Source of the DNA: Escherichia phage outra
Sequence record: MN850645.1
Strand: one strand, 5' to 3'
DNA: 64,000 nucleotides
The notes beneath the pieces were generated by a model that saw only the letters and a list, made by a program, of their open reading frames with translations, ran no database searches and had not been told where the DNA came from. Position 1 is the first letter of the stretch; the number at the start of each line of letters is the position of its first letter. Made by a program: the position numbers and the translations under genes. Below are positions 3,798 through 49,404 of the stretch, piece by piece.

Positions 3798-3842
3798 ATT
3801 TTCTCCTCTAACGCTCCCATTTGTGGGAGCGATAATACTTTA

Positions 3843-4987: not shown

Positions 4988-5026
4988 AAATCCTCCAAAA
5001 ATAAAGGGGCTTTCGCCCCTTTTTTA

Positions 5027-7020: not shown

Positions 7021-7112
7021 TTGATCGTAGTCTATTGCAAGAATTGTGTTCTCGTCAACATATTTGTGCAGGTCTTCCGGTTGGATTAAAATGTAACCGC
7101 TAATATTACCTC

Positions 7113-7325
7113 CTATTCATCATCTGAACTCTCTGTTGAGAATGTTCGTGTGTAGGGACACTGACGACTTGCAGAAACCTCTATAACCTTGTCGTACATA
7201 CCGTTAGAGTAAAAACAGTATTTTGTACTTCCAGAAACTTGTTCTCCAGAATTAATTAAAGTTATTTGACCAGCATAAGAATAAGAACTGATTACTAAAA
7301 GTAAACCGACAAGAAGTTTTTTCAT
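7113..7325 (-). CDS. small secreted protein (70 aa) with N-terminal signal peptide
   Basis: MKKLLVGLLLVISSYSYAG hydrophobic leader, then 50-aa mature region with 2 Cys; own RBS. Confidence 0.45.
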   Translation of the reverse strand: MKKLLVGLLLVISSYSYAGQITLINSGEQVSGSTKYCFYSNGMYDKVIEVSASRQCPYTRTFSTESSDDE

Positions 7326-7399
7326 GGTGTGTCTCCTTAAAAGCCCACCTAACTAAGTAGGTAGGCATATTAACACATATTAAATTAGTAAGTCAAGTA

Positions 7400-8284: not shown

Positions 8285-8294
8285 AGTTTTCTCC

Positions 8295-8573
8295 TCAAAT
8301 AACAACTACAAAATATTTTACGCCATCATATTCGACAATATGATCAGGATATTTAAATCCTTTATAAGATTTACCAAACAGACTAACAGCCTCATTAGCT
8401 TTGTTTTGCGGATTACTCAGCCACTGTTCTTCTGTGTAAAACTTAAACTCTGTTCTCTTACCTTCTTTTTCTAAACCAACAATTTCCTGTGTGATATCTT
8501 CAATACCTGCATTCTTCAAGGATTTGATTACCTGACGCAAACCGTGTTTAAAGATATCTTCTGCTGTTAACAT
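8295..8573 (-). CDS. hypothetical protein (92 aa)
   Basis: ORF track only. Confidence 0.35.
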   Translation of the reverse strand: MLTAEDIFKHGLRQVIKSLKNAGIEDITQEIVGLEKEGKRTEFKFYTEEQWLSNPQNKANEAVSLFGKSYKGFKYPDHIVEYDGVKYFVVVI

Positions 8574-8609
8574 AATACCTCCAATAAGCCCCCGAAGGGG
8601 CTTTATTTC

Positions 8610-9332
8610 TTAAGCAATGATTGCTGCGATATTAGGTTTAACAAAGGTAGATGGTTTCATAATTTTACCTTTGTCATCAAAGAATACGTACACCTTTTGA
8701 ACTTCGTTATATACAGCATGTACCCCAGTATAAGAACCTTCTGCACGATCTTTGCTTCGCATCTCGATAGCATCGCACTCTTTTTCAAGAGCTTCAATAA
8801 TATCCTTAGTTTCCCAAATAGCCAGGAGTTGCTTCTTGGTAGGATACTTGGACTCATTGCTATTCAACACTTCACGCATAACTTTCTTCTCGTTATAAAC
8901 AGAACGCACCAAAGTATCTCGTGCCATACGGGTAAGTGTAAGAGACATTAAGGCAAATTGCAAGTCATTTTCTACCATTTTATCAAATTCAATGATAACA
9001 TCGTAAATGTTTTCTGCCAGAACATCCCCTGTCGGCATTTCCAGAGCTTTATCAACACCTTCTTTACCAAAGAACATAAATGCCAGGTAGGATGCTACCA
9101 CAAAAATATCTGCTGCTGCATCAAGTAATTCAACGTGATCATTTTCCTGTGCTGCTGCTTGGAACTCTTTAAGTTCTTCTCGTACAAAAGAAAGTTGAGC
9201 TTCAAACATCTCTTGAGTAAATTCTGGAGTTACTCCACCACGTGCCTTAGCATTCCAAGCAACAATTTGATCGGCAGCTTTGATAAAGAAGCTATTGTCC
9301 ACTTTTACTTGTTTGAAAAAATTCTCGATCAT
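8610..9332 (-). CDS. MazG-like nucleoside triphosphate pyrophosphohydrolase domain protein (putative)
   Basis: N-terminal EELKEFQAAAQENDHVELLDAAADIFVV resembles the MazG/HisE EExxE...D metal-binding helix pair; C-terminal half unknown. Confidence 0.4.
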   Translation of the reverse strand: MIENFFKQVKVDNSFFIKAADQIVAWNAKARGGVTPEFTQEMFEAQLSFVREELKEFQAAAQENDHVELLDAAADIFVVASYLAFMFFGKEGVDKALEMPTGDVLAENIYDVIIEFDKMVENDLQFALMSLTLTRMARDTLVRSVYNEKKVMREVLNSNESKYPTKKQLLAIWETKDIIEALEKECDAIEMRSKDRAEGSYTGVHAVYNEVQKVYVFFDDKGKIMKPSTFVKPNIAAIIA

Positions 9333-9529
9333 TGTTTCTCCTTATTTAAAATATTGTTCTAACAAAACACTAATGCGAACTACCGATTCGCCCATATACG
9401 CCCCAGCACAGAGGAAAACAACAAATCTACAAAAATTGCAGTACCATTTGTCCACTGGAAACGAGGCTAACATTATAATTGCAATAGCAATTAACATCAT
9501 AAGAACTGTTACTAATACCATATTACCTC

Positions 9530-10645
9530 TTACTCTGCTGGTTCCCAAGTACCTGGAATCATCTTACGTACACGTACCCCAACAGGCTTGGTAGGAATAC
9601 CTTCGTCTGAAAATTCTTCGTACTCTATTTCAACAAATTGACCAATAAGTGTCAAAGCATTTTCTTCTTTACGATAGTTAATGGTTTCATCTGAATCCTT
9701 ACGCATCAGGAATTCGACTACTTTACCATTTTCCATCTCGCCTGTCAATACCCCGTCACCATTTTTATCACGTTTTGCACTTACCACTTTAACTTCAAGC
9801 GTCTGACGTGGTTTACGTTTAATAACATCATAAGAACGTTTATCAAACTCGTAAACACCTTGTGCGTTACGATACACCACACCTTCCGCTTTTTCACGTA
9901 GAGCTTTTGCATAGAATTCATCAAACTGCTCTTGGTTTTCAATGTATTCTGTATGTACTACACAAATTAGTTCATCTAAACCTTTATCTTCAACAACTTC
10001 TTTTAGAGCAGCTAAAACTTGAACCCTCTTCTCAAATGGTACAGATGGCACAGGAACATCATATACATAGTATTTAAGAAGTGGTGTGTTAGCATTATGC
10101 TTTTTCCACGCACTATTAATTTGTTGAAGGCTAAGGACACCCAAACCAGCAAAAACTTCACCGTCAAGAGGATGACCAACTACTTCTTTAATGAAGGTTG
10201 GAATTTCTTCCCAGTGAGGTGGAAGTTTATATACCTCACCAGCTTTAGATAAACATTCACCTTGCATGTTAATCATTGAACGTAGACCATTCAATTTATA
10301 TTGTGCATAACCTGGGAACAAAACACGGTCAGCATAATCTTTATAATCCTGACATTTCATGGGTGTGGAAGGAACATGGTTTTCAGCTTCCTCTTTTGTT
10401 TTATAATACCCATTCTTAAGTTGCTTTGTCCATTTGGCAAGAGCTTCTATTTCAGCTTGTTCTTCTGCTGTTGTTTCATTGGAGCGACCAATATTTTTAG
10501 GTTCTGCCGTATAAGATTTGCTAGTGATCTTTCCACCTAATTGACCATGAGCAACAGTTACAACACTACCTTCGGTATAGACTGACCACTGTCTAATTTT
10601 ACCTGTAGAAGTTTTACCATATAATGTAGGATTAGTTTGTTTCAT
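9530..10645 (-). CDS. ATP-dependent DNA ligase
   Basis: Motif I KLNGLR (KxDG-type), ~370 aa; start moved to Met17 (10645) with GGAGG RBS, removing overlap with upstream ORF. Confidence 0.75.
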   Translation of the reverse strand: MKQTNPTLYGKTSTGKIRQWSVYTEGSVVTVAHGQLGGKITSKSYTAEPKNIGRSNETTAEEQAEIEALAKWTKQLKNGYYKTKEEAENHVPSTPMKCQDYKDYADRVLFPGYAQYKLNGLRSMINMQGECLSKAGEVYKLPPHWEEIPTFIKEVVGHPLDGEVFAGLGVLSLQQINSAWKKHNANTPLLKYYVYDVPVPSVPFEKRVQVLAALKEVVEDKGLDELICVVHTEYIENQEQFDEFYAKALREKAEGVVYRNAQGVYEFDKRSYDVIKRKPRQTLEVKVVSAKRDKNGDGVLTGEMENGKVVEFLMRKDSDETINYRKEENALTLIGQFVEIEYEEFSDEGIPTKPVGVRVRKMIPGTWEPAE

Positions 10646-10835
10646 CTCTAACCTCCAGTTGCGAAAGAACCCATTTAGCCATTTCAATTTCACCGTGTAG
10701 TCTGCCTAGTTCATAGGCATCATCAATATTACCACCAGTGTAATCATCCACCATAAAGTAAGGATCTTCACTACTGTTAGGCGCGTTTGCAATTCTCGTT
10801 AGTTCTTCAATAAATGTCATAGTTAACCTTACCAA
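10632..10835 (-). CDS. hypothetical protein (67 aa)
   Basis: ORF track only. Confidence 0.35.
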   Translation of the reverse strand: MVRLTMTFIEELTRIANAPNSSEDPYFMVDDYTGGNIDDAYELGRLHGEIEMAKWVLSQLEVRDETN

Positions 10836-11053
10836 TTATACACAAGAGTTTGAATTTCTTCCATCAAGTCTTCAAGATCTGTATCAACATATTCAGAAGA
10901 TGTTGCCATAAAGTATGTAATCATTGTAAACCCTTCCGAAGAAAGGGCATCAAGGATATCATTAAACATATCTTCCATTTCAGTATTCTCACCAAATGAG
11001 AATAACATTTGTTGATCTTCGCTTACACCTTTAACATAGATAGCTGTACTCAT
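10829..11053 (-). CDS. hypothetical acidic protein (74 aa)
   Basis: ORF track only. Confidence 0.35.
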   Translation of the reverse strand: MSTAIYVKGVSEDQQMLFSFGENTEMEDMFNDILDALSSEGFTMITYFMATSSEYVDTDLEDLMEEIQTLVYNW

Positions 11054-11056
11054 ATA

Positions 11057-11377
11057 TTAATCCTTAAGACGTTCATTTAAATCTGCAATAACATCACCTA
11101 AATCTTCACATTCCAGTGTTAATTCGGAAACTTGTCCACTCAAATAACAAACTTCTTCATTTAGATCTGAAATAATGTTTTCTAATGAATCTACTTGGTC
11201 ATCATATGAACGTTTTGTTTCTTCAAGTTCTTCCGTAAGATCATTAATCAAACGGAGCAAAGATAAGATATAACCGTCTCCTGTTTCGTTCCTCCACTCA
11301 CTTCCGTAGCGATAAATAATAATTTCACCATTATCGACTACTGTAAAATACTTACCTTCACCAGAATAAATTTCCAT
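11057..11377 (-). CDS. hypothetical coiled-coil protein (106 aa)
   Basis: ORF track; heptad-like LxxLxxE pattern. Confidence 0.35.
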   Translation of the reverse strand: MEIYSGEGKYFTVVDNGEIIIYRYGSEWRNETGDGYILSLLRLINDLTEELEETKRSYDDQVDSLENIISDLNEEVCYLSGQVSELTLECEDLGDVIADLNERLKD

Positions 11378-11386
11378 ACACTCTCC

Positions 11387-11791
11387 TTATTGTAGCTTAA
11401 GTGAACTGCGAAGACGTTTCTCTTGCTGATCACGAATATGTTGTGGAACCTCGTGAATTGAGTCGTTACCGTGCCTATTTTCAACAACTAAAGAGATAAC
11501 TTGATAACCAAACTCTTCGGCAAGAGTTAAATAAGGTTTAAGTTCTTTCTCTGTGGTTGAAGTGTTAGAGACAATAATCTTTTCAACACCATACTGCATA
11601 TATTTTTGTACTTTGACACGACACCATTGGTGTGCTTTATGGATATTCTCTTCCTTCCACTCATACACACCATCTTCAGTGTAGTGGTATTGATCTGCCT
11701 CACAAATAGGCCAATGATTTTCAGAAATAATTTCTGCTACTGTAGATTTACCTGCGCCTGAAACACCACGTAAAATGATAAGTTGTTTCAT
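11387..11791 (-). CDS. P-loop kinase (polynucleotide/nucleotide kinase-like)
   Basis: Walker A LRGVSGAGKSTVAE at N-terminus; 134 aa; immediately downstream of RNA-ligase-like gene. Confidence 0.5.
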   Translation of the reverse strand: MKQLIILRGVSGAGKSTVAEIISENHWPICEADQYHYTEDGVYEWKEENIHKAHQWCRVKVQKYMQYGVEKIIVSNTSTTEKELKPYLTLAEEFGYQVISLVVENRHGNDSIHEVPQHIRDQQEKRLRSSLKLQ

Positions 11792-12724
11792 TTAGCCTCC
11801 AAAGAAGTTTTCTATTTCTTTACGTCGCTCTTGTGGATCTAGAGCAGCCCATTGAACCTTCGTAAAATTATTTCGAAGCCATTCTAGCAAAGTATAATAT
11901 TCTTCGTCAACAATTTGTTTAGCATTTTTTGGGTTGTCCCAAATCATATCCCACTTCTTATTGCCACCACGCATAAGGAATTTCTTAGCAAGATAGTATG
12001 GTGACTTAATCTTTAAGAGTAAGTTAAACGGATAGTTTGTTTCACGAACAACAAAGCCTTCGTGTCTACAATGTTTAGACATTTCAACAACATCTGAAAA
12101 TTTAATCATCGGATAAACTTCAGGACGTTTAAACTTTGTAACAGATGCAATCCCATCAAGAACACCTTCAGGTAACATGAAACTTGTCCCATCAAGATTT
12201 TGAATTCTTGCTCCAATTAAGTATGCGCCTGGTTCTTCTTCGACAATATGTGGATCAGAAGGATCACAGATTTCAAAAAGGAAAGTTGCTTTTGCACTTT
12301 CTGTCCACTTAATGAAATACTCTATGTCGTCACACTCGGAAACAATACGGTTCTTTGCCATAATTGCAAAATCTGATTCTAGGCTCCCTGTTGTTGATAC
12401 AACAAGTTTCCCTTTGTACACACCTACAGATGCCATAAAACCGTTTACTTTACGGACAACATCTACAATTTCGTCTGCTGGAAGATCTGTACCATTTTCA
12501 AAACGATTAAAGATTTTAGTAAAAGGCCAAATAACAACATTGTCTTCTGAGTCAACAACCAACCCACGACAATCTAGAAGTCGTTTGTCAACGTTCCACA
12601 AATTATCCCAGAATACATTGTTTTTGTATTTAAGCACAGCAAGACCAGCATACTCTCCAGATTTAACTTCTTTTTTATGCACTAAACCTTTTGCAATCAG
12701 GTCATCACAATTGAACTTAGCCAT
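11792..12724 (-). CDS. RNA ligase-like nucleotidyltransferase (Rnl2-like, putative)
   Basis: Covalent nucleotidyltransferase motif I KVNGF (KxNG); 310 aa; flanked by phosphoesterase and kinase. Confidence 0.45.
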   Translation of the reverse strand: MAKFNCDDLIAKGLVHKKEVKSGEYAGLAVLKYKNNVFWDNLWNVDKRLLDCRGLVVDSEDNVVIWPFTKIFNRFENGTDLPADEIVDVVRKVNGFMASVGVYKGKLVVSTTGSLESDFAIMAKNRIVSECDDIEYFIKWTESAKATFLFEICDPSDPHIVEEEPGAYLIGARIQNLDGTSFMLPEGVLDGIASVTKFKRPEVYPMIKFSDVVEMSKHCRHEGFVVRETNYPFNLLLKIKSPYYLAKKFLMRGGNKKWDMIWDNPKNAKQIVDEEYYTLLEWLRNNFTKVQWAALDPQERRKEIENFFGG

Positions 12725-12725
12725 C

Positions 12726-13277
12726 TTAATCTCCTTTGATTATCTTATGATGGTCTACAACAACAATATCACGCTTATCCATAATAGAGATGATTTCGTC
12801 AAAATGCAAGATTTTACCGTGTGCATCCCAACCAACATCCAACATCTTCCCATACAAATGATCAGGGAATGATCCGTGAGAGTGTCCGTGTAGCATGATT
12901 GATCCATGCCCTTGTTTATTCCAGGCAGCCATAGGGTAATGGCTTAAGACGAAAAACAGCTTCTGATATTTCACTTCGTCATAATAAACCACTTCTCCAT
13001 ACTCTGCAAGCACTTTTCTGTGTTTACTGTAATCATGGTTCCCAACACAGTAAGTAATATCCCCTTGGAGACGGGAAGCAATCTTACGGGTATCTTCTTC
13101 AGTCCCGAAACAGAAGTCCCCAAGATGGTACATCTTTACTCCTGGTGTTGTGGCACATTTATTCCATGCTTCGATCAGTGCTTCTGTCATATGCTCCATA
13201 TCTTCCCACGGGCGATATTCAGGAGCAAACTCTCGGATACGTTTGTGCATAAAATGCAAATCACTTGTAATAAACAT
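12726..13277 (-). CDS. calcineurin-like metallophosphoesterase
   Basis: SDLHF...GDFCFG...GNHDY...GHSHG metal-binding motif series. Confidence 0.7.
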   Translation of the reverse strand: MFITSDLHFMHKRIREFAPEYRPWEDMEHMTEALIEAWNKCATTPGVKMYHLGDFCFGTEEDTRKIASRLQGDITYCVGNHDYSKHRKVLAEYGEVVYYDEVKYQKLFFVLSHYPMAAWNKQGHGSIMLHGHSHGSFPDHLYGKMLDVGWDAHGKILHFDEIISIMDKRDIVVVDHHKIIKGD

Positions 13278-13639
13278 TAGTATAATCCCTCGCTGAATAG
13301 TTCACTGTTGTGACCATTTCTTTCGTAGTTAATTTGTTTGGCGTTATCTGCAATGATATAAGCATCTTTTCGACTCCACCAATTGTAATACTGATCAATA
13401 AACCCTTGATTATCAGGTAAGCAAAACAGTTTATCGATCAATCCTGCATCTTTTAAAACATTAAGTTGTGCAGATAGTATAGGATTTGCATGCCTAACAC
13501 AAGGAATAATTAACTCTTCACCATTGTTGAGAATATACTTATTCGCAGCGCAGACTATAACACGTTGAGCATAGTGATCCTCACCAATCCAGGTAAGAGG
13601 TTGGTAACAAATATCATGTTGATTAGTAGCGCACATCAA
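13277..13639 (-). CDS. hypothetical protein (120 aa)
   Basis: ORF track only. Confidence 0.4.
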   Translation of the reverse strand: MMCATNQHDICYQPLTWIGEDHYAQRVIVCAANKYILNNGEELIIPCVRHANPILSAQLNVLKDAGLIDKLFCLPDNQGFIDQYYNWWSRKDAYIIADNAKQINYERNGHNSELFSEGLY

Positions 13640-13794
13640 TTTTCTCCATACTCTTTTAGTCTATCAGCGAAAAAACTGTAATCAGGAAGTAAAAGATCAT
13701 TACTCGTATCGCTCCAGTTCTCTTCCTCTCTATAGATAAAATGCCCTTCATCCTCTTCTTGCTCTGACCAAACTGAATAATGCATAATACCTAC

Positions 13795-14169
13795 TTAATA
13801 GTTAACACGTTTAATTTCAACACCATAGGATGAAATAAAATTTTCCTTAGCTAACATATATTTACCAGCAGCAGAAGGATTTGATGTATGAACATAGATA
13901 GTTTTAAGAGCATCCCATTCACCCGCGTACAACATACATTCTACATCCAAGAACGCATGATATCCTTCTTGATCTTCTCCAAGATCATTATCGAAGTGTA
14001 TCTCTGAGATAGTATTGAAATTATCTTCATCTGAAACAAAAGATGACCAATCCTCAAAAGATTTTAACCAAATGGCATCCTCATAACCATAATCTTTAGG
14101 ATCTCTTAAATCGTCTAACCAAAGAATTTTAGCCACTATCAACCTCCTTCCTGTTTCTCTTCTTTCCAA
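13795..14169 (-). CDS. hypothetical protein (124 aa)
   Basis: ORF track; ILWLDDLRDP / IHFDNDLGE segments of unknown significance. Confidence 0.4.
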   Translation of the reverse strand: MERRETGRRLIVAKILWLDDLRDPKDYGYEDAIWLKSFEDWSSFVSDEDNFNTISEIHFDNDLGEDQEGYHAFLDVECMLYAGEWDALKTIYVHTSNPSAAGKYMLAKENFISSYGVEIKRVNY

Positions 14170-14330
14170 GTTTTACCTTTATCTACCAATTTCTTAGAAA
14201 CAGCAAATCTTTCCCCATTGATATAAAACAAATAAAGAATAAAGGATTTTCCTATAGTTACAGTATCTACTACTTCTACACGCTTCACACCTTGCATGTA
14301 TTTGGCTTTACCTGAATAAATAAGAAACAT
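14139..14330 (-). CDS. hypothetical small protein (63 aa)
   Basis: ORF track only. Confidence 0.3.
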   Translation of the reverse strand: MFLIYSGKAKYMQGVKRVEVVDTVTIGKSFILYLFYINGERFAVSKKLVDKGKTWKEEKQEGG

Positions 14331-14608
14331 TACTTATTCCTTTTGTTGTTGATCACATCTAAAGCTGTGTAAGGCTTGTTTGTACCGCTGTATTCAAGAA
14401 TAATTGGTACATATTCATAGACCAACTCAAAAGTGCCATACACAGAATCTGCAACTGAAATAAGCATTTCAGTGCCTTCGTCGTTCTTAATTAATGAAAA
14501 TCTTGCCCCTGGTTTATTGAGCACTTCATATTTCTTACCTGCTGTCAGCAAACCTGAATACCATTCATTTTGCACAACAGACAAACACTTCAGATATGTT
14601 TTTCTCAT
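14330..14608 (-). CDS. hypothetical protein (92 aa)
   Basis: ORF track only. Confidence 0.35.
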   Translation of the reverse strand: MRKTYLKCLSVVQNEWYSGLLTAGKKYEVLNKPGARFSLIKNDEGTEMLISVADSVYGTFELVYEYVPIILEYSGTNKPYTALDVINNKRNK

Positions 14609-14946
14609 TTCTTTTTGCTCCTTCTTTTAGGCTTCTCGTATAAACCTAACACAGCCGATTCTTTTGCACAAATAGGAACTGACTTCATTCCTCGTTTTTT
14701 AGCTTCTGGTAGATTCAAAACCCACCAGCCAAACCAGTACAATTCATCCTCTGTAAAAGGATTTGCCATAGGATCTGCATCACGTTCTTCAAATTTAGCA
14801 AGAGCTTCTTCTATCTTTTCTATTGGAGTATCAAAGACAAAAGCCTCTGTGTCAAATTTTTGTTTCTTAGGAGCGGCTTTTGCCGCCCCATCTTTAGATG
14901 CGTGCTTTGTTACGGATCGCTTCTTCGGTGTTTTCGCCATCAACAA
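14605..14946 (-). CDS. hypothetical basic protein (113 aa)
   Basis: Lys/Arg-rich N- and C-termini; possibly nucleic-acid binding. Confidence 0.4.
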   Translation of the reverse strand: MLMAKTPKKRSVTKHASKDGAAKAAPKKQKFDTEAFVFDTPIEKIEEALAKFEERDADPMANPFTEDELYWFGWWVLNLPEAKKRGMKSVPICAKESAVLGLYEKPKRRSKKK

Positions 14947-15133
14947 CCTCCATGCGGTGTAAGAAATCTTGCTGGAATCGCCAATACTGTTGACCAGTCC
15001 TTACATCTTCGTAGATCACAACAGGATCAAATACTTTAGATACACCTGCTGGTTTAGGGAAGCCAACTACACGATATAAACCACCTTTGCTAATACAAGA
15101 ATATGTTACATCAGTTAAAATTTCTTTTTTCAT
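14894..15133 (-). CDS. hypothetical protein (79 aa)
   Basis: ORF track only. Confidence 0.3.
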   Translation of the reverse strand: MKKEILTDVTYSCISKGGLYRVVGFPKPAGVSKVFDPVVIYEDVRTGQQYWRFQQDFLHRMEVVDGENTEEAIRNKARI

Positions 15134-15327
15134 TTCTTAATAAACTCCAATACAGGTACGTGATCAGCAGTTAAAGTTACACAATTGTAACTCACCTTTT
15201 CAACTTCAGAGAATGCTTCAACCCATAGCAAGAAATTCTCTTTAGCTTCTTCATAATTCAATGTTGACTTAACAACATGGAACTCACCAAGGATTACTCT
15301 ATAGATTGTTTGCATAGTTTGATTCAT
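15130..15327 (-). CDS. hypothetical protein (65 aa)
   Basis: ORF track only. Confidence 0.35.
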   Translation of the reverse strand: MNQTMQTIYRVILGEFHVVKSTLNYEEAKENFLLWVEAFSEVEKVSYNCVTLTADHVPVLEFIKK

Positions 15328-15393
15328 TTATTTTTCCTTTGTTTAAAATGTGTTAAACAATCGCAAATGCTTGTGACGCACTTTGTGATTCCA

Positions 15394-15762
15394 CTAATTA
15401 ATGTCAGCACTATGATTGTTGAGAGTATAGGATACTCCATCGCCCAAGTCAACATGAATCTCAACTCCTAACTGTCTTTCTAATGGTAAACGTTTTGAGA
15501 ATTGATAATTACAAAGTTTACAGTCTAAGTCAAGCAACTCATGTTTGCTTAAACCTGCAACGATAACTTTGCTCCCCACTGTCCACTCAATACCTTCAAA
15601 ATTATCTCTTCTTTTCAAAATGTCAAGTAAGAAGATGATTTGTTGCCATTCCGTAGACAAGTCTTCTTCATAGAATGCAGAACAAAAAGTTTTATCATCG
15701 TAGAAAGCATACATTATGCCTCCATCTATTGTTTCACTTCTAACGTAACGTGTGACCCTCAT
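15394..15762 (-). CDS. hypothetical protein (122 aa); first gene of the minus-strand early block
   Basis: ORF track; RBS GGAGGAAATAATG at start. Confidence 0.4.
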   Translation of the reverse strand: MRVTRYVRSETIDGGIMYAFYDDKTFCSAFYEEDLSTEWQQIIFLLDILKRRDNFEGIEWTVGSKVIVAGLSKHELLDLDCKLCNYQFSKRLPLERQLGVEIHVDLGDGVSYTLNNHSADIN

Positions 15763-15893
15763 TATTTCCTCCTGTATGGCTCTGTAACGAGCTAATCGCC
15801 TTTAAGATATGCAATCACCTTACCTCACAGTAAAACTCGTTACAATCGTTTTTAGGAGGTTTAGGTTGTACTTAAAAATAATCTAAAAAGGTG

Positions 15894-15922
15894 TTGACAA
15901 ACGCAAAAAAGTATGCTACCCT
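15894..15922 (+). promoter_or_regulatory. sigma70-like promoter candidate (TTGACA-N17-TACCCT)
   Basis: Consensus -35 hexamer, weak -10; followed by GC hairpin ACCCCC...GGGGGT. Confidence 0.3.
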
Positions 15923-16103
15923 AACCCCCGAAAAACGCCGAGCGCAGCGAGGGGGTGTTATCTAATCTTGTGATACATGATCTAACAGACAACTGAGTAG
16001 TCTACATATAGCATTATGTTATGTCTCTAATACTAACATACATACTCTATACTAACAATAGATTCTTTATTAATTTTATTATTAATTAAATAATAAATAT
16101 CTA

Positions 16104-41598: not shown

Positions 41599-42234
41599 AT
41601 GGGAATACCATTTGATTTAAAACTTGATGGTTCTAACGATTTAGTAATGGTGGATGGTGATTTAACACTAACCACAACTAAAAGTGAAATTGCAGCACAG
41701 ACGCTTGGAATAACACTTAGAACTTTCCGTGGAGAATGGTTCCTCAACTCTAATTTTGGGGTTCCATATCTGCAAGAGATTATTGGTGTTGCCAAGAAGA
41801 AAGAGATTGTTGATCGCATTTTCTTATCAACTATCGCAAGTAATGTTTATATAGATAATATCAATTCCTACACATCCTCTTATGATAGAGATGATAGGTA
41901 TTACTCAATGAATGTTACTGTTACAGTTGGTGAACAAGTTGTTAGTGCTCTATTCAGTACACAGCCGTCTGAAGAATATATCTATCCAGAAGCTGGTGAT
42001 GATAATGCAGCAATCACTTGTGAAGCATTTGAAATTGTTGAATCTGCAAATAGACTCTATCGCTTTATTAACATTGTTGGTCTTCCTAAAGATACTTATT
42101 CTACTTGGTGGAATGAGTGGTCTAACGAGGCATTGATTGAAAAATACCTTGTTAACGAAGCCAATAAAGGTCTTGCAACCAATTACAACTATGCTATAAC
42201 AGCAACAATGGGAGCTACAAATAATAATGGCTGA
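41599..42234 (+). CDS. baseplate assembly protein (gp25/W-like family, putative)
   Basis: N-terminal GITLRTFRGEWFLNSNFGVPY pattern typical of small baseplate wedge proteins. Confidence 0.4.
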   Translation: MGIPFDLKLDGSNDLVMVDGDLTLTTTKSEIAAQTLGITLRTFRGEWFLNSNFGVPYLQEIIGVAKKKEIVDRIFLSTIASNVYIDNINSYTSSYDRDDRYYSMNVTVTVGEQVVSALFSTQPSEEYIYPEAGDDNAAITCEAFEIVESANRLYRFINIVGLPKDTYSTWWNEWSNEALIEKYLVNEANKGLATNYNYAITATMGATNNNG

Positions 42235-42700
42235 TTTAACTACAATCAAGGTGTCTGATCTACCTGTAACAACATCTGTTTCAGACACAGATTATTTTGT
42301 AACAGATCAATCAGGCATCACTAAGAAAACATCCTTACGTGTTCTTCTTGCGGGTGCTGGTGTTACACGAAATCGTCTTTCTGCAAGGGGTACTGTTACA
42401 AATACCCTAGCTTTAGATATTAGCACGGCAGAGTATTTCTCTGCCACTTTATCTAGTCCAACTTGCAGTATTTCATTTAGTAATGTTCCAGTTACAACTA
42501 ACATTGTTCAAAACTTTACGCTATCCCTACGTCAAGGCAGTGGAGCAAATAAAGTAACGTGGCCTCAATCTGTTAAATGGAGTTTTGGTCGCGCTCCTGT
42601 TTTGAGTTATAAGCAGGGAGCTACAGATATTTTTGAATTTGTTAGTTATGATAATGGAGCTACCTGGATAGGTAGTTTAGTGATGGCAGGAGTGATTTAA
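42227..42700 (+). CDS. baseplate-associated protein (157 aa)
   Basis: Position; overlaps neighbours by a few nt. Confidence 0.4.
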   Translation: MADLTTIKVSDLPVTTSVSDTDYFVTDQSGITKKTSLRVLLAGAGVTRNRLSARGTVTNTLALDISTAEYFSATLSSPTCSISFSNVPVTTNIVQNFTLSLRQGSGANKVTWPQSVKWSFGRAPVLSYKQGATDIFEFVSYDNGATWIGSLVMAGVI

Positions 42701-45576
42701 TGTCAAGAATTAAGCACAGAATTGACAATGTTTTTCAACTGATCGATGGACATATTCAGTTCTTAGATCGTAATACAGGTTTAACTGTAGATCCTACAGT
42801 GCAACACTATGTATTAAACCCACAAAACGTTCTAGCTAATAACAGACACTTTATAAACTGGACTGCTCAAGAAGGGCAACCAAACGGGGATGCTACAACA
42901 GAAGGTCAATCCGTGCTTATTCTTGGTTGCGCTTATGCATACCTAGCTTCCGGCGATACAAAGTATTTAGACTCTGCTAAAAAATATTGGCAAGCCTATA
43001 TAGATTACTTCTTTGGTGGTCAACCTATCCCAGATCCGCCAGCAAAGTATCGCCCTAACTGGATTATTAACGGTAAAGAACCACGTCTTGCACATTATCC
43101 TCTTACAGATGATGGCTACCCTACACACGGAGGTTTTAAGGGTAGCTTAATGACGTGGACTAACGGTAGAACAGTTATTCCTCATGGTGCTCCACATTGG
43201 GGAGAATACCTTGATAAAGCATGGTTTGCTTTTAATGGTAATCTAGGATGGAACTCTGTAAACGCTACAGTATATGCTGTTAATGCAGATGGTACAACAG
43301 ATTGGTCTAAGAAGGGAGATCAATGGGATGTTGATTGGATCATTGATCGTCTAGGACGTAAAGTTGATTGGGATGGAAATATCTTAGAAGAAGGTTTTCC
43401 AACATCTCAATACGGAACAGTTCAACTAAAAAATACTTCTGTAAATGGTACATATAAATTTAACTATGCGACTTGTAACCCTGTTGAACACGGTGGTTAT
43501 TTAATGGAGCGTAACACTATGTGGCATAACAGACCAGTTAACGTTCCGGTAGAAATGGGCTTTCAGGATAATGCGTCAGATGCCGAAACTTGGTGGTGTG
43601 ATGCTAATTACCTGATGTACCAAATTACAGGAGAAAGAAAATATTGGCTATGCTGGCAGTCTTCACTGTTAGTGTGTCAAGATTATTCAAACATTGATAT
43701 GTTTGATAAATTCTTCCGTAAGTCTACATATGCAACTATCCCGTTTACAGATGGCATCTCTTACGATTATTCGTATCCATCTACAGCAATACCTAAATAT
43801 TCAAGAGATACTTTAGGTTATATTGTTATTAGACAAGATGTTGCTGCTCAAACAACATTAGAACAGCAATCTATTTGGTTTAAAGTTGATCAGAACTCTA
43901 AGTTACGAGTTCAGTTCCAAGGCGTAGATGACGCAGGACATGGTATTCTTTTCCGTCCAGAATTGGAGCTAAGTAAGACCAAAGATGAAAATAACACAGT
44001 AACTTACCGTTGTGGCTTACCATTAGGTACAGCTAATATGACAAGCATGGATATTCCATTATCCAGCTTTATGAGAAGTACCCCTCCGAATGGTGGAACA
44101 TATATTATCGCAGATCCGCGAATTATTGTTGACTGGGGTGACAATACTGTGGTACAATTTAAGTATGTAACAGGTATTGCTGGAACTAATAATGACCAGA
44201 TTGTTACTGCATCAATGGATACGGATGGTGGTGTCACTGTTGGTTTTTGGTTAACTCCTACATCAAAAGCTAATGTTAAGTCTATTACATATAGAACATA
44301 TGAAGATGACTTTAACATGACTATCACGGATGCTCAAGGTTGGAGATGGTGGGCTATGCTGCCTAAAACGCAAGGAGCATGGAGTACGAAGACTTTATCA
44401 GCTTCTGATTTTCAGTTAAGTGCTTACCAGCCTAATCATCCAGATACAGATCCTAAACCTTCAGCAATAAATCTTACTGCGGTAGATCAGGTAAATTTAG
44501 TTCTTGATACGGCTCCTGTCAATGGTTTAACAGGAACAATAGATTTCTATTGTATTAATGATGTACCTGAAAGATATTCGTCATCTTCTGGTGATGATTA
44601 TACCATGTACTTCCGTATTACTGTACAGGCTTCAAGTCCTCATACTGCTAAGTTAGGTGATTGTACTATTATTGACTATAAGTTAAATAGTCTTAATTAC
44701 ACACCAGGAATAATTCCATTCTCTAATATCAGTGACCCAAACACTGCATTATACGATGGATGGCGTGGTATTCCATACCCAGGATACCAGTATCCTTCCT
44801 TATACTGCTTCGCAGGTAGGGATATTGATTGGACACGTTTAAACAACAGTATTGATTTCTTGTATGATGCTCAAATGTGGTTTTATAACACGTTTGATCC
44901 TGTGATGCCTGGGCCTATGGCACAAGCATATGTGTGGGATCGTTGGGATGCAAGAAAATACGGTGAACCTAATACGTTTACAATGAAACACTGGAATGAA
45001 AAAGCGTGGGATGGTTATGAAGCTCGTGCATTCTACTGTGCTTGTCATGCTGTATACGAACTTGTACAAAGAGGAGAAACACCTCCTGAAAAACTAGTAA
45101 CTGTTTGTAAAAATTGGATCAACTACCTTAAATGGTTCCAAGACAATAATGATGGAAGAACACCAACTATCTTTAACCCAGATGGTACAGTTCTTGCGCC
45201 TATAGATGACTTTACTAGTCATATGTCTGCACTGTTTATGGCGGGTTGTTCAATCATGGGCTTGGCAGGTTATGATTCACAAATTCCAAACATTGGTATT
45301 GTAGCAGACAGATGTTTTGATCTGATTCAGCAAAACTATATTGTGCTCTCCCCTAACCATCCAATGAATGGTTGCTGGAGTGTTGCACCGCGTCCAGATT
45401 CAGATAACGGAATGTTCTTTGGTTTCCATGCTGGAGAACTATTACGTGGTTTTGGTTTATATGCTTTATATCGTAAACTAAATCCTCAAAACGCCTTACC
45501 AATTTTGGACAATAGTAACATACCGACACTAACTGTTCTAACTATGAATGATATTAGTGTTGATGTAACCAAATAA
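42700..45576 (+). CDS. large tail/baseplate protein (958 aa) with possible glycan-processing domain
   Basis: Trp/Tyr-rich segments (AYAYLASGDTKYLDSAKKYWQAYIDYFF; FYCACHAVYELVQRGE) suggest a helical carbohydrate-active fold; unverified. Confidence 0.4.
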   Translation: MSRIKHRIDNVFQLIDGHIQFLDRNTGLTVDPTVQHYVLNPQNVLANNRHFINWTAQEGQPNGDATTEGQSVLILGCAYAYLASGDTKYLDSAKKYWQAYIDYFFGGQPIPDPPAKYRPNWIINGKEPRLAHYPLTDDGYPTHGGFKGSLMTWTNGRTVIPHGAPHWGEYLDKAWFAFNGNLGWNSVNATVYAVNADGTTDWSKKGDQWDVDWIIDRLGRKVDWDGNILEEGFPTSQYGTVQLKNTSVNGTYKFNYATCNPVEHGGYLMERNTMWHNRPVNVPVEMGFQDNASDAETWWCDANYLMYQITGERKYWLCWQSSLLVCQDYSNIDMFDKFFRKSTYATIPFTDGISYDYSYPSTAIPKYSRDTLGYIVIRQDVAAQTTLEQQSIWFKVDQNSKLRVQFQGVDDAGHGILFRPELELSKTKDENNTVTYRCGLPLGTANMTSMDIPLSSFMRSTPPNGGTYIIADPRIIVDWGDNTVVQFKYVTGIAGTNNDQIVTASMDTDGGVTVGFWLTPTSKANVKSITYRTYEDDFNMTITDAQGWRWWAMLPKTQGAWSTKTLSASDFQLSAYQPNHPDTDPKPSAINLTAVDQVNLVLDTAPVNGLTGTIDFYCINDVPERYSSSSGDDYTMYFRITVQASSPHTAKLGDCTIIDYKLNSLNYTPGIIPFSNISDPNTALYDGWRGIPYPGYQYPSLYCFAGRDIDWTRLNNSIDFLYDAQMWFYNTFDPVMPGPMAQAYVWDRWDARKYGEPNTFTMKHWNEKAWDGYEARAFYCACHAVYELVQRGETPPEKLVTVCKNWINYLKWFQDNNDGRTPTIFNPDGTVLAPIDDFTSHMSALFMAGCSIMGLAGYDSQIPNIGIVADRCFDLIQQNYIVLSPNHPMNGCWSVAPRPDSDNGMFFGFHAGELLRGFGLYALYRKLNPQNALPILDNSNIPTLTVLTMNDISVDVTK

Positions 45577-45584
45577 GGAAAATA

Positions 45585-47660
45585 ATGAAACAGGCTATTT
45601 TTACTGTAACTCGAAATACGAGAGTAAATGCCAGTTCATTCAGCTATAAGACCGTCGATGGAACGGCGGTCGCTGGTAGAGATTATGTAGCTAAACAGGG
45701 AACAGTAACGTTCCCTTCTGATGCAGATTCTGCTACTGTAGTGGTTGATGTATATGAACGTCCGGCAAACTCTTTAGATCTTTATTTTACTCTTGAGATT
45801 ACTAGCATAAGTCAAAATAACATGATGATCAACGAAGAAATTCGTTGTGTTATTACGACTGATCAATCGAATACAACCCCGCTAACTTGGCCTGTTGTGA
45901 AGTCTAGAATGTTTGATCCTAAGTTTTGGACAATAGATTCTCAAGCAACAGAAAGTTGTTCTATTATCTCTAATGGTGATTCTTTCACAGCAAGAATGGT
46001 TAATAGGACAGTGGCTGGTCTTGCTGGGATTATTTGGTCAACTTACGATAAATATGATCACAAAGGATTAGGCTACCAAGAACATTCTGACTTAAGTAAA
46101 GAGAAACTTTGGTTTAAAATGGAACTTAGTCAAGGTGTTCCTGGATTAAAAGAAGAAAAATTAATGCCATCCTTAACAGTGACACTGAAGGATGAAACAG
46201 TTCATTATGTATCTCTAAACTTTTATGCAGAAGAAGTTTCAGAGGACGGTAAAACAGCAATAATCAAATTAGATTTCTCAAATTTAAAATCTGGGCCAGA
46301 AAATGATATTGTTGTTGACACTACACAGATAGATAACATGTTCTTCTCCTTGATTTCCGCAAGGTATCAAGAAATTGAAGATGTTATACCAGTAGACAAT
46401 ATAGATCTTTCCTTTAAGTTTACCATACTAGAGCCTGATACTGGTTACAGTATGATGAATATGGGTAATTTAAATGTTCCGGCGCACACCATAAGAATGT
46501 GTACATCTTATGATGATATGTATAACCTAACACCAGAGCGAGTTATTTCTAACACCTATAGATTAGGTTATAGAGATATGATTAACCATTATAATGGTAT
46601 GTCACACTATTATCAATTTAGTTGGGATGCCGGATCTAATAAATGGGCTTTGAATAGAACAGAATATTTAAACCCAGCAACAGAAGCCTGGTTTGATAAT
46701 TTCCACGCTAATGCAAAAGCTATGGGCTACACAGTAATGAACTCCTTAAGTTTTGAACTTATGAGTACAGTGTGTCCTGTAGAATGGGTACAACATACTT
46801 GGAATGATGATCTGGCTGCTACAGGTTATGAGCCACCAAGTTATGTTTTATCTCCTTCAATTGATGAAGGGATGAATTATTTACAAGGTGTAATAAATAA
46901 GATAGCTTCTATATCCGCTGCCAATGATCTTCCTGTTATTATTCAGGTTGGTGAACCGTGGTGGTGGTATAACACAGCTACCAATCTACCGTGTATCTAT
47001 GATTATACAACCAAAGTTGCATTTAATAATGAAACTGGGTTATATGCACAAGATGTTGGTACAGTTAAGAATTATAAAACTGGTACACCATATGATGAAT
47101 ATTATGCATTCCTATCTAAAACATTAGGACTGCGTGTTGCTAAATTTGCAACAGATACTAAATTAGCCTATCCTGGAGCTAAAGTTACATTATTACCATT
47201 TGTGCCATCCATTTTAGGTAACGGTATGATGGAGTTTGTTAACTTCCCTAAAGATCATTATATCCCAGAAAACTTTGACTTTTATTGTTCAGAATGTTAT
47301 GACTGGTTGTTGGAAGGTCAGATGGAAAGATCTTTCGACGCTATCAAAATACCTAATGAGCAACTAGGTTTTAGTTATGATAAGATACATTATCTTGCAG
47401 GGTTTGTTCCAGATGCAACTCTAGCACCATTATATGGCTTTGATCCTGAATCAGACTACAGAACATATTTGTGGAAAATGATTATAGGTAATATTGTATT
47501 GAATGACCAGAAGTTTGTTGGTTTGTATCAATACATATGGGCTTATCCACAAATTATGGCAGATTCATTAACTGTTCTTAATTCAAAATCCCAAGTTTTT
47601 TATATGGGTAACGTACCTCTGAATGTCTTTTTACAAGATACAGTATATGTTTCTTCTTAA
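45585..47660 (+). CDS. large tail/baseplate protein (691 aa)
   Basis: ORF track; aromatic-rich GEPWWWYN segment; function unknown. Confidence 0.4.
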   Translation: MKQAIFTVTRNTRVNASSFSYKTVDGTAVAGRDYVAKQGTVTFPSDADSATVVVDVYERPANSLDLYFTLEITSISQNNMMINEEIRCVITTDQSNTTPLTWPVVKSRMFDPKFWTIDSQATESCSIISNGDSFTARMVNRTVAGLAGIIWSTYDKYDHKGLGYQEHSDLSKEKLWFKMELSQGVPGLKEEKLMPSLTVTLKDETVHYVSLNFYAEEVSEDGKTAIIKLDFSNLKSGPENDIVVDTTQIDNMFFSLISARYQEIEDVIPVDNIDLSFKFTILEPDTGYSMMNMGNLNVPAHTIRMCTSYDDMYNLTPERVISNTYRLGYRDMINHYNGMSHYYQFSWDAGSNKWALNRTEYLNPATEAWFDNFHANAKAMGYTVMNSLSFELMSTVCPVEWVQHTWNDDLAATGYEPPSYVLSPSIDEGMNYLQGVINKIASISAANDLPVIIQVGEPWWWYNTATNLPCIYDYTTKVAFNNETGLYAQDVGTVKNYKTGTPYDEYYAFLSKTLGLRVAKFATDTKLAYPGAKVTLLPFVPSILGNGMMEFVNFPKDHYIPENFDFYCSECYDWLLEGQMERSFDAIKIPNEQLGFSYDKIHYLAGFVPDATLAPLYGFDPESDYRTYLWKMIIGNIVLNDQKFVGLYQYIWAYPQIMADSLTVLNSKSQVFYMGNVPLNVFLQDTVYVSS

Positions 47661-47671
47661 GGATCTCTAGT

Positions 47672-47917
47672 ATGAGAAAATTTTTAATAGGTATGTTTTG
47701 TACATATCCTGATAATAAAGTCAGTTCTACTAAAGTTTGGAATGCTATTGGTATGATTGTTATGTCCAGTATGTTTATTTATTTGGGAATTGATAAAGAA
47801 ATTCCTGAATGGATGGGCTGGGCTTTTGTTTTTATGATCACACCATCCAGACTAATGAAGAATTTAATAGATTTACGTTGGGGCAGATCACCTGCCCCTG
47901 ATAAGGAGGATAACTAA
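47672..47917 (+). CDS. small membrane protein (81 aa, two hydrophobic segments)
   Basis: IGMIVMSSMFIYLGI and WMGWAFVFMITP hydrophobic stretches; embedded in baseplate cluster. Confidence 0.4.
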   Translation: MRKFLIGMFCTYPDNKVSSTKVWNAIGMIVMSSMFIYLGIDKEIPEWMGWAFVFMITPSRLMKNLIDLRWGRSPAPDKEDN

Positions 47918-49404
47918 TGGCAGATTATGGTTTAACAGATGCTGGTTTTGTCATTCCAACGTTTGATGATATTCTAAATAATTATATGACAGCATTGAAA
48001 AACACTTTCGGTGCAGATACAGCTACATCTGAAGATACTGTCTTTGGTCAACTGTTTCGTATTATTGCATATACAGATTACACCCTTTGGGAAGGTATGC
48101 AAGGTGTTTACAATACCCAAACCTTAGATGGTGCAGAAGGTATTTACCTTGATGAAATTTTCTCTAAGAGAGGTTTTTATCGTAAGGCAGCTTCTGCTGG
48201 TAGTGGTTATGCTTATGTTAAATCTAACAATAAGGCAGCTTGGACTTATGAACTAAGCACCGATGTTTATTTTAATGCCGATAACGATTTGACATATTAT
48301 GTCAGTGCACCAACAATGTTGAATGCTAAGATTGGAGCATATACCATTTCTAAAGCAAACGCAACAGCTTCTGGTGAAACTTCTATTACTTTCTACATTC
48401 AAAGTGCTATTGATGGTGGTCTTAACAGTAAAACACTAAGTCCTAGCAATACAAACTTTATTTTAGATCTCACGAATTTCATTAAAGCTAACGTATCAAC
48501 AACAGATCGTGCTTTAGTATGGAATGATGCCAGTAATGTTTACATGGGTTATAATCCAGAAGATAATGTTAACCCAATAGGTCTAGTAACACCAGTGAAA
48601 TTTTACGCATCTATTGCAATTGGTACAAAATGGAGTGAAATCCCAGTTACGTGTTCAGACGTTGGTTATAATCCAGTAGGTACAGAAAGTATTACAGGTA
48701 TTTCTTCAACGTTTACAGGCTTTTTAGATACAGGTAACTTCTATCCATTCTCTCCAGGTACGGATGTTGAAACAGATGCAGAATTCCGTTCTCGTTTCAA
48801 TGATAATATGGATGAAGCTAATGCTGCTACTCGTGCTGCTATTGTTAAAGCTCTGCTACTGACAGATGGTGTGACAAAGGTTAAGATTTATGATAACCCT
48901 ACACTACATGATCAGGAACATGCTCCAGCTATGACATTCCAGACTATTGTGTATGGCGGTACAGCAGAAGAAGTTGCACAGGTTATTTATAATACTAAGC
49001 CTATTAACACCTTAACCTATGGTACAACAGCAATTACTATCGTAACAGAAGATGGCGGTCAAGAAGTAATTCGTTTTTCTCCTGGTGACAATGCTGAATA
49101 TTCACTTAAACTAGTATATCAAACTGGCAATGGTAGTGTATTAAGTACAACAGAAAGAGAAAATATTGTTTCTGCTCTTTCAAATCTACAGGCTTATTTT
49201 GAGTTAGGTTCAACAGTAACTAACGATCAGATAAAAGGTGTAATTTATTCTGCACTTGCGTTCGGACGCTTGACTTCTCTCCGTGTTTATGTTAAACTTA
49301 ATACTGAGGATGACAGTAAATATAATGAGGGAGATATCACTCCAGCGTACAATGTTGTACCATCCTTTGACCTTGATAATATTTCCTACGAGTACGGAGT
49401 CTAA
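47917..49404 (+). CDS. baseplate J-like protein
   Basis: 495 aa; N-terminal MADYGLTDAGFVIPTFDDILNNY... typical of gpJ/gp47-like baseplate proteins (recalled pattern). Confidence 0.5.
   Translation: MADYGLTDAGFVIPTFDDILNNYMTALKNTFGADTATSEDTVFGQLFRIIAYTDYTLWEGMQGVYNTQTLDGAEGIYLDEIFSKRGFYRKAASAGSGYAYVKSNNKAAWTYELSTDVYFNADNDLTYYVSAPTMLNAKIGAYTISKANATASGETSITFYIQSAIDGGLNSKTLSPSNTNFILDLTNFIKANVSTTDRALVWNDASNVYMGYNPEDNVNPIGLVTPVKFYASIAIGTKWSEIPVTCSDVGYNPVGTESITGISSTFTGFLDTGNFYPFSPGTDVETDAEFRSRFNDNMDEANAATRAAIVKALLLTDGVTKVKIYDNPTLHDQEHAPAMTFQTIVYGGTAEEVAQVIYNTKPINTLTYGTTAITIVTEDGGQEVIRFSPGDNAEYSLKLVYQTGNGSVLSTTERENIVSALSNLQAYFELGSTVTNDQIKGVIYSALAFGRLTSLRVYVKLNTEDDSKYNEGDITPAYNVVPSFDLDNISYEYGV

Follow-up and report, generated by a model that had tools for sequence, protein, structure and literature searches.

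Two large proteins encoded in the baseplate module of Escherichia phage outra as probable glycan-targeting tail components with predicted glycosidase-type folds

Two unusually large genes lie at positions 42,700 to 47,660 of the 64,000-nucleotide stretch of Escherichia phage outra analyzed here (record MN850645.1; hereafter the window), within the baseplate module, and encode proteins of 958 and 691 amino acids (a.a.) that are referred to as gp141 and gp142 after their counterparts in phage phi92. Both are orthologues of phi92 gp141 and gp142 and are likely carried on the virion as tail proteins that target glycans. The best explanation is that they are accessory parts of the apparatus through which phi92-like myoviruses achieve multivalent adsorption. 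Glycosidase-type barrels are predicted in each protein by AlphaFold2, fold assignments that are held with high confidence; whether these putative enzymes actually catalyze glycan cleavage is judged to be evenly balanced.

Orthology of the two genes to phi92 gp141 and gp142 is practically certain, judging from identity and gene order. A 6.5-kb query across the region gave 99% DNA identity to Escherichia phages ESCO32, ZYD, and arall and 98-99% identity to approximately 50 other Justusliebigvirus genomes (98.6% for phage Paula), and the 958- and 691-a.a. proteins are 99-99.9% identical to those of close relatives by tblastn. Coding sequence notes of Paula cross-reference phi92 gp139-gp151 in the same order, including gp139 (gp25-like), gp140, gp141, gp142, gp144, gp145 (gp6/J-like), gp146, gp147, and gp150 (colanidase), and both the high identity and the synteny with gp139-gp147 that characterize the phi92 gp141 and gp142 orthologue groups were found here. 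The window is assigned on these sequence grounds to Justusliebigvirus, i.e., a phi92-like coliphage. The 958-a.a. protein has 311 homologs at E<=0.001 and tblastn matches in 531 phage records, and the 691-a.a. protein has 291 homologs and tblastn matches in 331 phage records, so that both open reading frames (ORFs) are considered, from this conservation, real genes rather than chance ORFs. Among related phage baseplates, the same gene order and the same proteins were found in phi92, Paula, and PaulScherrer. The genes and their annotation as glycosidases are already in the public record, and the finding is thus known in kind: Paula labels gp141 and gp142 each as 'potential tail fiber protein with glycosidase activity or carbohydrate binding module', the BASEL phage PaulScherrer (bas60_0025/0026) carries the descriptions 'lateral tail fiber protein with several glycosidase domains' and '...with glycosidase and deacetylase domains', and a 2017 review names phi92 Gp141 and Gp142 as glycosidases, crediting Schwarzer et al. 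2012 (J Virol 86:10384).

A helical carbohydrate-active fold had been proposed for the 958-a.a. protein by the initial annotation on the basis of its aromatic-rich segments, and structure prediction bears this out, the initial interpretation as a whole being supported in part: the AlphaFold2 model of gp141 (built with 37 homologs; predicted local distance difference test [pLDDT] 86, predicted template modeling score 0.82) is globular, displays no fiber fold, and contains an (α/α)6 barrel of glycosidase type. Aromatic residues account for 13.5% of the protein overall and 15.5% of the helical barrel segments. Paired helices at residues 67-104, 293-330, and 711-926 build the predicted barrel, with β-rich insertions at approximately residues 119-290 and 346-690. 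The gene and its predicted segments are as follows.

42700..45576, plus strand: gp141 orthologue, 958 a.a., (α/α)6-barrel glycosidase-like by prediction, with two β-rich insertions; ATG start.
42700..43053, plus strand: gp141 a.a. 1-118, N-terminal helix and first barrel helices (helices 8-24, 67-84, and 87-104).
43054..43569, plus strand: gp141 a.a. 119-290, β-rich insertion 1 (model strands 122-276; no Pfam match at E<=10).
43570..43734, plus strand: gp141 a.a. 291-345, barrel helices with the 'ASDAE' motif (helices 293-310 and 313-330).
43735..44769, plus strand: gp141 a.a. 346-690, β-rich insertion 2 (strands 354-658, pLDDT ~90; no Pfam match).
44770..45573, plus strand: gp141 a.a. 691-958, C-terminal barrel half (helices 711-926) and disordered tail (a.a. 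928-958).

The phage protein family phrog_23426 ('tail protein') covers a.a. 500-625 of gp141, within insertion 2, which in the model is probably composed of two β-sandwich domains, candidate carbohydrate-binding modules. In the C-terminal tail, pLDDT falls below 50 at residues 928-931 and 944-958.

The predicted (α/α)6 barrel of gp141 is that of the GH8 fold, and the model also resembles CPF_2247, the founding member of GH126, a family that includes PssZ and whose structures are akin to those of clan GH-M (GH8 and GH48) (PMC13363691, PMC7479077). Because the literature places CPF_2247 and PssZ in GH126, the GH8 identity suggested for entry 3ren by its PDB title ('family 8') was dropped. In GH8, GH48, and GH126, Glu, Asp, and Tyr residues serve as proton donor, in substrate binding, and in water coordination; GH126 enzymes keep this GH-M set and lack the GH8-type base (PMC13363691, PMC7479077). 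Candidate equivalents in gp141 are invariant in 37 of 37 homologs (~45% mean identity to the query), namely E68 ('TTEGQS', nt 42901-42903), D294 (nt 43579-43581) together with E296 in 'ASDAE', and Y696 ('WRGIPYPGYQYP', nt 44785-44787; invariant 'W..PYPGYQYP'). By sequence, neither full-length gp141 nor a barrel-only construct matched the GH8 family (PF01270) at E<=10. Of the invariant residues specific to GH126 (Arg139, three residues after Asp136, and Tyr307; PMC7479077), the Arg was not found at the corresponding gp141 residue 297, which is T, L, Q, E, V, or C among homologs, as judged by spacing only. gp141 is therefore assigned an (α/α)6 glycosidase fold resembling GH-M/GH126, in which the acid, Asp, and Tyr residues are plausibly intact, and is placed in neither GH8 nor GH126.

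The second protein, gp142, was modeled with very high confidence (pLDDT 93), and contains domains recognized by Pfam.

45585..47660, plus strand: gp142 orthologue, 691 a.a., candidate NGR-glycan recognition module; ATG start, Pfam domains, and homology to phage N4 gp65/gp64.
45594..45857, plus strand: gp142 a.a. 4-91, Calx-β domain (PF03160, E = 1.2e-9; PDB matches to Na/Ca-exchanger Calx-β).
45909..46400, plus strand: gp142 a.a. 109-272, NCTSP_N β-sandwich (PF23844, E = 5.5e-21; N4 gp65 residues 45-129).
46479..47564, plus strand: gp142 a.a. 299-660, (β/α)8 TIM barrel (PF23845 TIM-barrel_NCTSP, E = 3.7e-81).

Scores for the NCTSP family domains (273.3 bits for PF23845 and 75.1 bits for PF23844) far exceed the Pfam gathering cut-offs (27 each), and, Calx-β entries aside, the only PDB relatives of gp142 by sequence are N4 Gp64 (phmmer E = 1.4e-28; profile E = 2.7e-80) and gp65 (E = 2.7e-30). 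Invariant polar residues follow the strands of the gp142 barrel, including D310/D311 (β1), E391 (β3), E457 (β4; 'GEPWWW', nt 46953-46955), E570 (β6; nt 47292-47294), and Y603 (β7), with E457 and E570 both kept in N4 gp64. Such a pattern would mark a conserved pocket for sugar binding or catalysis. All 348 positions of PF23845 are represented in gp142, whereas in N4 (locus L010 14758-20192) gp65 matches only positions 4-46 (residues 374-416) and gp64 matches positions 60-347 (residues 109-407); the gp142 family profile splits over N4 gp65 and gp64 in the same way. Two readings of this pattern are that each N4 protein carries a half-diverged barrel or that one barrel is formed from two chains of the gp65/gp64 heterodimer.

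BASEL and NGR papers describe gp142 as a tailspike with a 'glycan deacetylase domain', i.e., a polysaccharide deacetylase, a statement derived from Phyre2 (PMC8594841, PMC8669472) and echoed by the GenBank note 'glycosidase and deacetylase domains'; Foldseek does list full-length PgaB (4f9j) with E = 2.4e-7. The 'poly-GlcNAc deacetylase domain' label came from Phyre2 (PMC8669472, PMC8594841), and the fold match behind it was therefore most probably with the hydrolase-type barrel of PgaB and not with its CE4 deacetylase domain. The predicted gp142 fold matches the glycoside-hydrolase domain of PgaB/BpsB, and the published label therefore looks like a misnomer. By neither fold nor sequence does gp142 resemble a CE4 polysaccharide deacetylase of the PgaB N-terminal type, and the gp142 family profile has no detectable similarity to Escherichia coli PgaB. 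A deacetylase tailspike is accordingly regarded as highly improbable.

A connection of gp142 to NGR, a surface glycan controlled by cyclic di-GMP and postulated to be based on N-acetylmannosamine (ManNAc), derives from host genetics and homology. Phages of the phi92-like and Vequintavirinae groups lose infectivity on ΔwecB and ΔnfrB hosts, indicating NGR dependence (PMC8669472), and such dependence permits bypass of the O-antigen. A conserved fiber protein of these phages is homologous to N4 Gp64 (PMC8594841), and a 2026 preprint calls phi92 Gp142 an NGR-binding protein by homology to N4 Gp65 (bioRxiv 10.64898/2026.04.02.716166). Recognition of NGR by gp142 is favored on this basis, with modest confidence.

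The gene layout around gp141 and gp142 was confirmed from the ORF list. Two large ORFs and a small membrane protein between the gp25-like and Baseplate_J genes, as described in the initial annotation, are present at the expected coordinates; overlooked in that description was a 157-a.a. ORF (42227..42700) between the gp25-like gene and the 958-a.a. gene.

41599..42234, plus strand: gp139 orthologue, gp25-like sheath initiator (phrog_120; Paula annotation; phi92 cryo-electron microscopy [cryo-EM] assignment); 5' flank.
42227..42700, plus strand: gp140 orthologue, 157 a.a., small fiber-like adaptor (phrog_9017 'tail fiber protein'; phi92 gp140 'conserved phage structural protein').
47640..47671, plus strand: empty 'gp143 slot', a variable cassette junction (DNA identity to PaulScherrer stops at 47640 and resumes at 47672).
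47672..47917, plus strand: gp144 orthologue, 81 a.a., small predicted membrane protein (phrog_1322 'membrane protein').
47917..49404, plus strand: gp145 orthologue, Baseplate_J wedge protein (PF04865; phi92 cryo-EM); 3' flank.

An ATG/TAA overlap at 42700 and gaps of only 8 nt (45577-45584) and 11 nt (47661-47671) separate the genes from gp140 to gp144, tight packing that is expected of one translationally coupled structural operon. GC skew over the window (1-64000) is negative from 1 to 16000, positive from 16000 to 58000, and negative past 58000, a pattern that fits a change in the direction of transcription on each side of the structural module. The region is also 98.7% identical to unannotated GenBank records MG065639, MG065645, MG065656, and MG065689, entered as 'Campylobacter phage' with host Campylobacter jejuni, and further 'Campylobacter phage' records resemble rV5-like phages; these matches probably represent mislabeled hosts or contaminating coliphages in that dataset.

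gp140 and gp141 form a two-gene cassette found in unrelated phages. The N terminus of gp140 is variable, while a conserved C-terminal domain (approximately a.a. 60-157) accompanies genes of the gp141 family, and in every context examined a homolog of this domain is encoded immediately upstream of the gp141 homolog, with differing N termini. Identity to the gp140 C-terminal domain is 47% in a Pseudomonas P2/HP1-like prophage, 42% in rV5 gp43, and 35% in SPN3US gp123, the corresponding pairs being rV5 gp43-gp42 and SPN3US gp123-gp124, the latter outside the tail gene cluster. The constancy of this upstream domain and the variation of the N termini therefore suggest an adaptor-plus-enzyme cassette. 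Distribution of the gp141 family is wide, spanning Justusliebigvirus, Phapecoctavirus (83% identity), Vequintavirus (35%), jumbo phage SPN3US (41%), Rosemountvirus-like Salmonella phages, Erwinia and Vibrio phages, P2-like phages (annotated 'glycosyl hydrolase'), and prophages of Pseudomonas, Enterobacter, Gluconobacter, and marine bacteria.

Fusion proteins further define the context of the gp141 module. In P0089, a P2 gpI wedge domain (Tail_P2_I) precedes a gp141-like module, and in P0096 and its relatives the gp141 module is followed by approximately 650 residues ending in a glycine-rich domain. P0095 (1557 a.a.), encoded in the tail cluster of a metagenomic SU10-like podovirus contig, joins a gp141-like module to a gp142-like NCTSP_N domain and TIM barrel, with 50% identity to gp142 residues 103-677 and a junction at approximately gp141 a.a. 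935. In SU10-like/Grimontviridae podoviruses, the gp141-family gene lies two genes past the head-tail adaptor with one gene of approximately 255-260 codons between (loci L003 6691-11364 and L008 4962-7880). These podovirus genes and the gp141/gp142-like fusion indicate that one and the same module occurs as a baseplate accessory in myoviruses and as a tail protein in podoviruses. The fusion architectures would place this module at the tail periphery, with its C terminus as an attachment point for distal modules. P0095 drops exactly the gp141 C-terminal tail and the gp142 Calx-β domain, the latter also missing from gp142 homologs of Acinetobacter prophages; since both segments are lacking in the fusion, docking of Calx-β on the gp141 tail is suggested as one option only. 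Against such docking, the gp142 homolog of rV5 is encoded beside wedge genes, 12 kb from the gp141 homolog.

The end of gp142 coincides with a site of gene exchange. The break in identity at 47640 falls inside the last gp142 codons, which mark the start of the exchange cassette. In phi92, PaulScherrer, and other relatives, the slot holds an extra tailspike gene and the gp142 C terminus is 34 residues longer; spike-bearing genomes encode a 719-a.a. gp142 with a different C terminus, and the window encodes the short 691-a.a. form next to an empty slot. Relatives with an insertion in the slot appear as two-piece DNA matches. PaulScherrer carries bas60_0027 and bas60_0028 in the slot (locus L009 5901-8484), and phi92 carries endosialidase gp143 between gp142 and gp144, which is lacking in the window, as reported for ESCO32-type phages. 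This arrangement suggests that a tailspike present in only some of these phages, such as endosialidase gp143 of phi92, may dock at the end of gp142. Moreover, the gp140 N terminus 'TIKVSDLPVTTSVSDTDYFVTDQSG' (42227-42320) resembles that of the PaulScherrer slot spike 'TITNLPETSKVNGSDYLVLDQSD' (L009 6254-6330), which suggests that proteins docking on the same arm have an anchoring motif in common. Downstream of the slot, gp144 is 37% identical to rV5 gp29, a 'membrane protein' also encoded among tail-fiber genes at a different position, and is called a conserved structural protein in the Paula record.

A number of observations, concerning catalysis, host distribution, and virion placement, count against gp141 and gp142 as virion-borne glycan-targeting proteins. 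Searches with gp141 of Pfam, NCBIfam, and PDB (phmmer, profile against PDB, and barrel-only construct against Pfam at E<=10) returned nothing useful, the sole profile match in PDB being GH76 repeat-like (E = 0.13). The barrel-only gp141 profile was collinear with a BcsZ profile over 316 columns by hhalign, at a non-significant E of 0.044 and a probability of 1.2%. Counting in favor of the candidate residues, E68 falls in this non-significant alignment on BcsZ E55 ('TSEGQS'), the residue mutated in structure 3QXQ (PMC13363691), ASDAE falls on 'ASDGD', and Y696 falls on 'NPSY' ('WRFNPSYLPP'). The BcsZ profile was shallow, its homolog set holding only BcsZ orthologues of at least 60% identity, and hhalign against a single BcsZ sequence gave motif-level collinearity without significance. 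The GH8 general-base Asp (BcsZ 'SYDAIRVY') corresponds by hhalign to approximately gp141 residues 779-780, where no conserved base was found (residue 779 is variable and both are 'x' in the consensus). The invariant D750 ('WDARKY') was considered as an equivalent of the GH8 base and rejected, as hhalign aligned D750 elsewhere.

One explanation of this pattern is that gp141 and gp142 have kept glycosidase folds and lost catalysis, serving as lectin-like receptor binders and as an arm for exchangeable spikes, comparable to the N4 sheath. This would account for the variability of gp141 where GH8 has its general base and for the lack of an acidic residue after gp142 strand β7, the site of the clan GH-A nucleophile, as would the description of N4 gp65/gp64 only as structural sheath and receptor-binding proteins, with no mention of glycosidase or hydrolase. 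The variable distal modules that always occur at the C terminus of gp141 modules, and the high conservation of gp141 across hosts, also fit. However, the invariant Glu, Asp, and Tyr of gp141 and the invariant polar residues after all eight gp142 strands exceed the needs of a scaffold, and PssZ actively hydrolyzes exopolysaccharide even though its family, GH126, the best structural match, likewise has no base of the GH8 type (PMC13363691). Purely binding proteins are thus considered a serious but rather unlikely alternative to glycan-targeting proteins with putative catalytic activity.

With respect to host distribution, approximately 45% identity of gp141 is kept across phages of Pseudomonas, Stenotrophomonas, Vibrio, Erwinia, and marine hosts, conservation that appears unusual for a host-specific depolymerase. 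Because of this broad spread, and because most of those phages are without gp142, specificity of gp141 for NGR seems doubtful. In rV5, the genes for the gp141 and gp142 homologs lie approximately 12 kb apart, and adjacency is therefore not required for function. Additionally, N4 gp65 is described as binding protein NfrA (the exporter), with appendage gp66 binding NGR (PMC13434306), and gp142, if analogous, might have a protein and not a glycan as its ligand. Another explanation for gp141 is hydrolysis of a broadly conserved β-linked matrix or envelope polymer (cellulose, phosphoethanolamine cellulose, or another exopolysaccharide), clearing biofilm matrix rather than acting as a host-specific receptor enzyme. 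Against this proposal, the putative active-site base of gp141 differs from that of GH8, and the family is isolated from cellular enzymes, a gp141 profile retrieving only 382 clusters from 1.84 billion representatives, none in cellular GH8 or GH126. A matrix hydrolase is considered unlikely, and a role in adsorption is preferred for gp141 as for gp142.

Virion association is best documented for the gp142 family. rV5 gp34, a gp142 homolog of 690 a.a. with a Calx-β domain, was detected in virions by mass spectrometry (MS; 4 peptides, 10.3% coverage; PMC3606486). The gp141 homolog rV5 gp42 is reported as detected in the main text of that study, yet is absent from its MS table S5 (PMC3606486); the table contains 19 proteins, none of 865 a.a., and the gene table flags gp34 and gp41, and not gp42, with 'MS evidence' (PMC3606486, Additional files 3 and 5). 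Cryo-EM of phi92 (August 2026) built gp134-gp139, gp145, and gp146 and identified fiber III as gp147; gp143 was inferred at the tip of the L-shaped fiber I, an arm-like scaffold, with fibers I and III attached to gp145. In that study gp141 and gp142 were not placed and receive no mention. Only fiber-shaped AlphaFold models entered the screen for candidates, and the arm of fiber I and all of fiber II were left without protein assignment. Assembly factors or lysis-released enzymes encoded inside the baseplate module by chance would explain why neither protein was placed in the phi92 reconstruction, why rV5 gp42 does not appear among the proteins tabulated by MS, and why SPN3US gp123-gp124 lies outside the tail gene cluster. 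Arguing otherwise are the MS evidence for rV5 gp34, the occurrence of gp141-like modules in one chain with the P2 gpI wedge domain or with tail-fiber-type modules, homology of gp142 to N4 virion proteins solved in situ, and translational coupling of the genes within a structural operon; a non-virion role is therefore deemed very improbable. Formation of the fiber I/II arm by gp141 and gp142 is a tentative possibility.

In the mechanism proposed for gp141 and gp142 as adsorption proteins, both would sit on the baseplate periphery, with gp141 anchored by gp140 and/or the wedge. gp142 would recognize NGR, the ManNAc-based glycan that phi92-like phages require according to host genetics, and the two proteins would bind, and probably cleave, host surface polysaccharide, one or both barrels cleaving or processively engaging the glycan. 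The O-antigen would thereby be bypassed and the short fiber gp147 brought to the lipopolysaccharide core, while the gp142 C terminus would serve as the exchange point for an extra tailspike, the slot being empty in this genome. A more speculative extension, considered quite unlikely, is that gp140, gp141, and gp142 constitute the arm of phi92 fiber I and/or II as a two-enzyme platform, gp141 being the first of a new phage-borne GH-M/GH126 branch and gp142 an unsplit, ancestor-like form of the N4 gp65/gp64 barrel. By analogy, gp141 could then possibly cleave ManNAc-based NGR as GH126 PssZ cleaves the ManNAc-Gal exopolysaccharide of Listeria. If true, podoviruses and myoviruses would have in common one portable glycan-processing module, seen as the 'sheath' in N4 and as the baseplate arm in phi92. 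Phages of the phi92-like and rV5-like groups have among the broadest host ranges of coliphages, and understanding this breadth requires the role of each tail protein. What this analysis adds to existing annotation is modest, namely the GH-M/GH126-like assignment, catalytic-residue candidates, the hydrolase-type label for gp142, recognition of gp140 and gp141 as a cassette, the fusion proteins, the position of the slot junction, and the division of the barrel between N4 gp65 and gp64. Work on enzyme activity, on the fitting of maps, and on the engineering of host range could start from the residue candidates, label, cassette, and junction.

Compared with known systems, the closest are the phi92 and BASEL orthologues, which have the same order gp139-gp140-gp141-gp142-(gp143)-gp144-gp145 and the same potential glycosidase/carbohydrate-binding annotation; other Justusliebigvirus isolates are reported to be >97% identical to phi92 proteins. 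The present genome differs from phi92 in having no gp143 and a short C terminus in its 691-a.a. gp142. The gp65 (major, receptor-binding) and gp64 (minor) sheath proteins of N4 (PDB 9LC0, 9YF4, and 9YF5) are two chains, whereas gp142 is a single-chain homolog that adds an N-terminal Calx-β domain and is without gp65 domains D3-D10. The N4 sheath is a six-fold, non-contractile assembly of gp64-gp65 heterodimers around a short tube; in contrast, the gp142-bearing phage has a contractile tail, making a tube-sheath role implausible. As only domains are shared with N4, gp142 is regarded from sequence comparison as a domain-level homolog of NCTSP and not as a sheath. GH-M/GH126 enzymes (CPF_2247, 3REN; PssZ, 6R2M; CelA, 1CEM/1KWF; BcsZ, 3QXQ) have no significant sequence similarity to gp141 and are secreted cellular enzymes, while gp141 is a phage tail protein whose barrel, unlike theirs, is interrupted by approximately 515 residues of β-rich insertions. 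For gp142, likeness to PgaB/BpsB is to the C-terminal hydrolase domain (GH153; PMC5933820) and not to the CE4 domain, with no sequence-profile similarity, and GH42, GH14, GH5, and GH35 barrels score against gp142 much like this hydrolase domain. Branched adaptor-plus-tailspike systems of the K1E/K1-5 type, to which that of G7C is comparable, offer a further parallel. In K1E/K1-5 (PMC13450770), a conserved proximal protein likewise carries exchangeable enzymatic spikes; unlike that system, the proximal components described here are themselves predicted to have enzyme-like folds.

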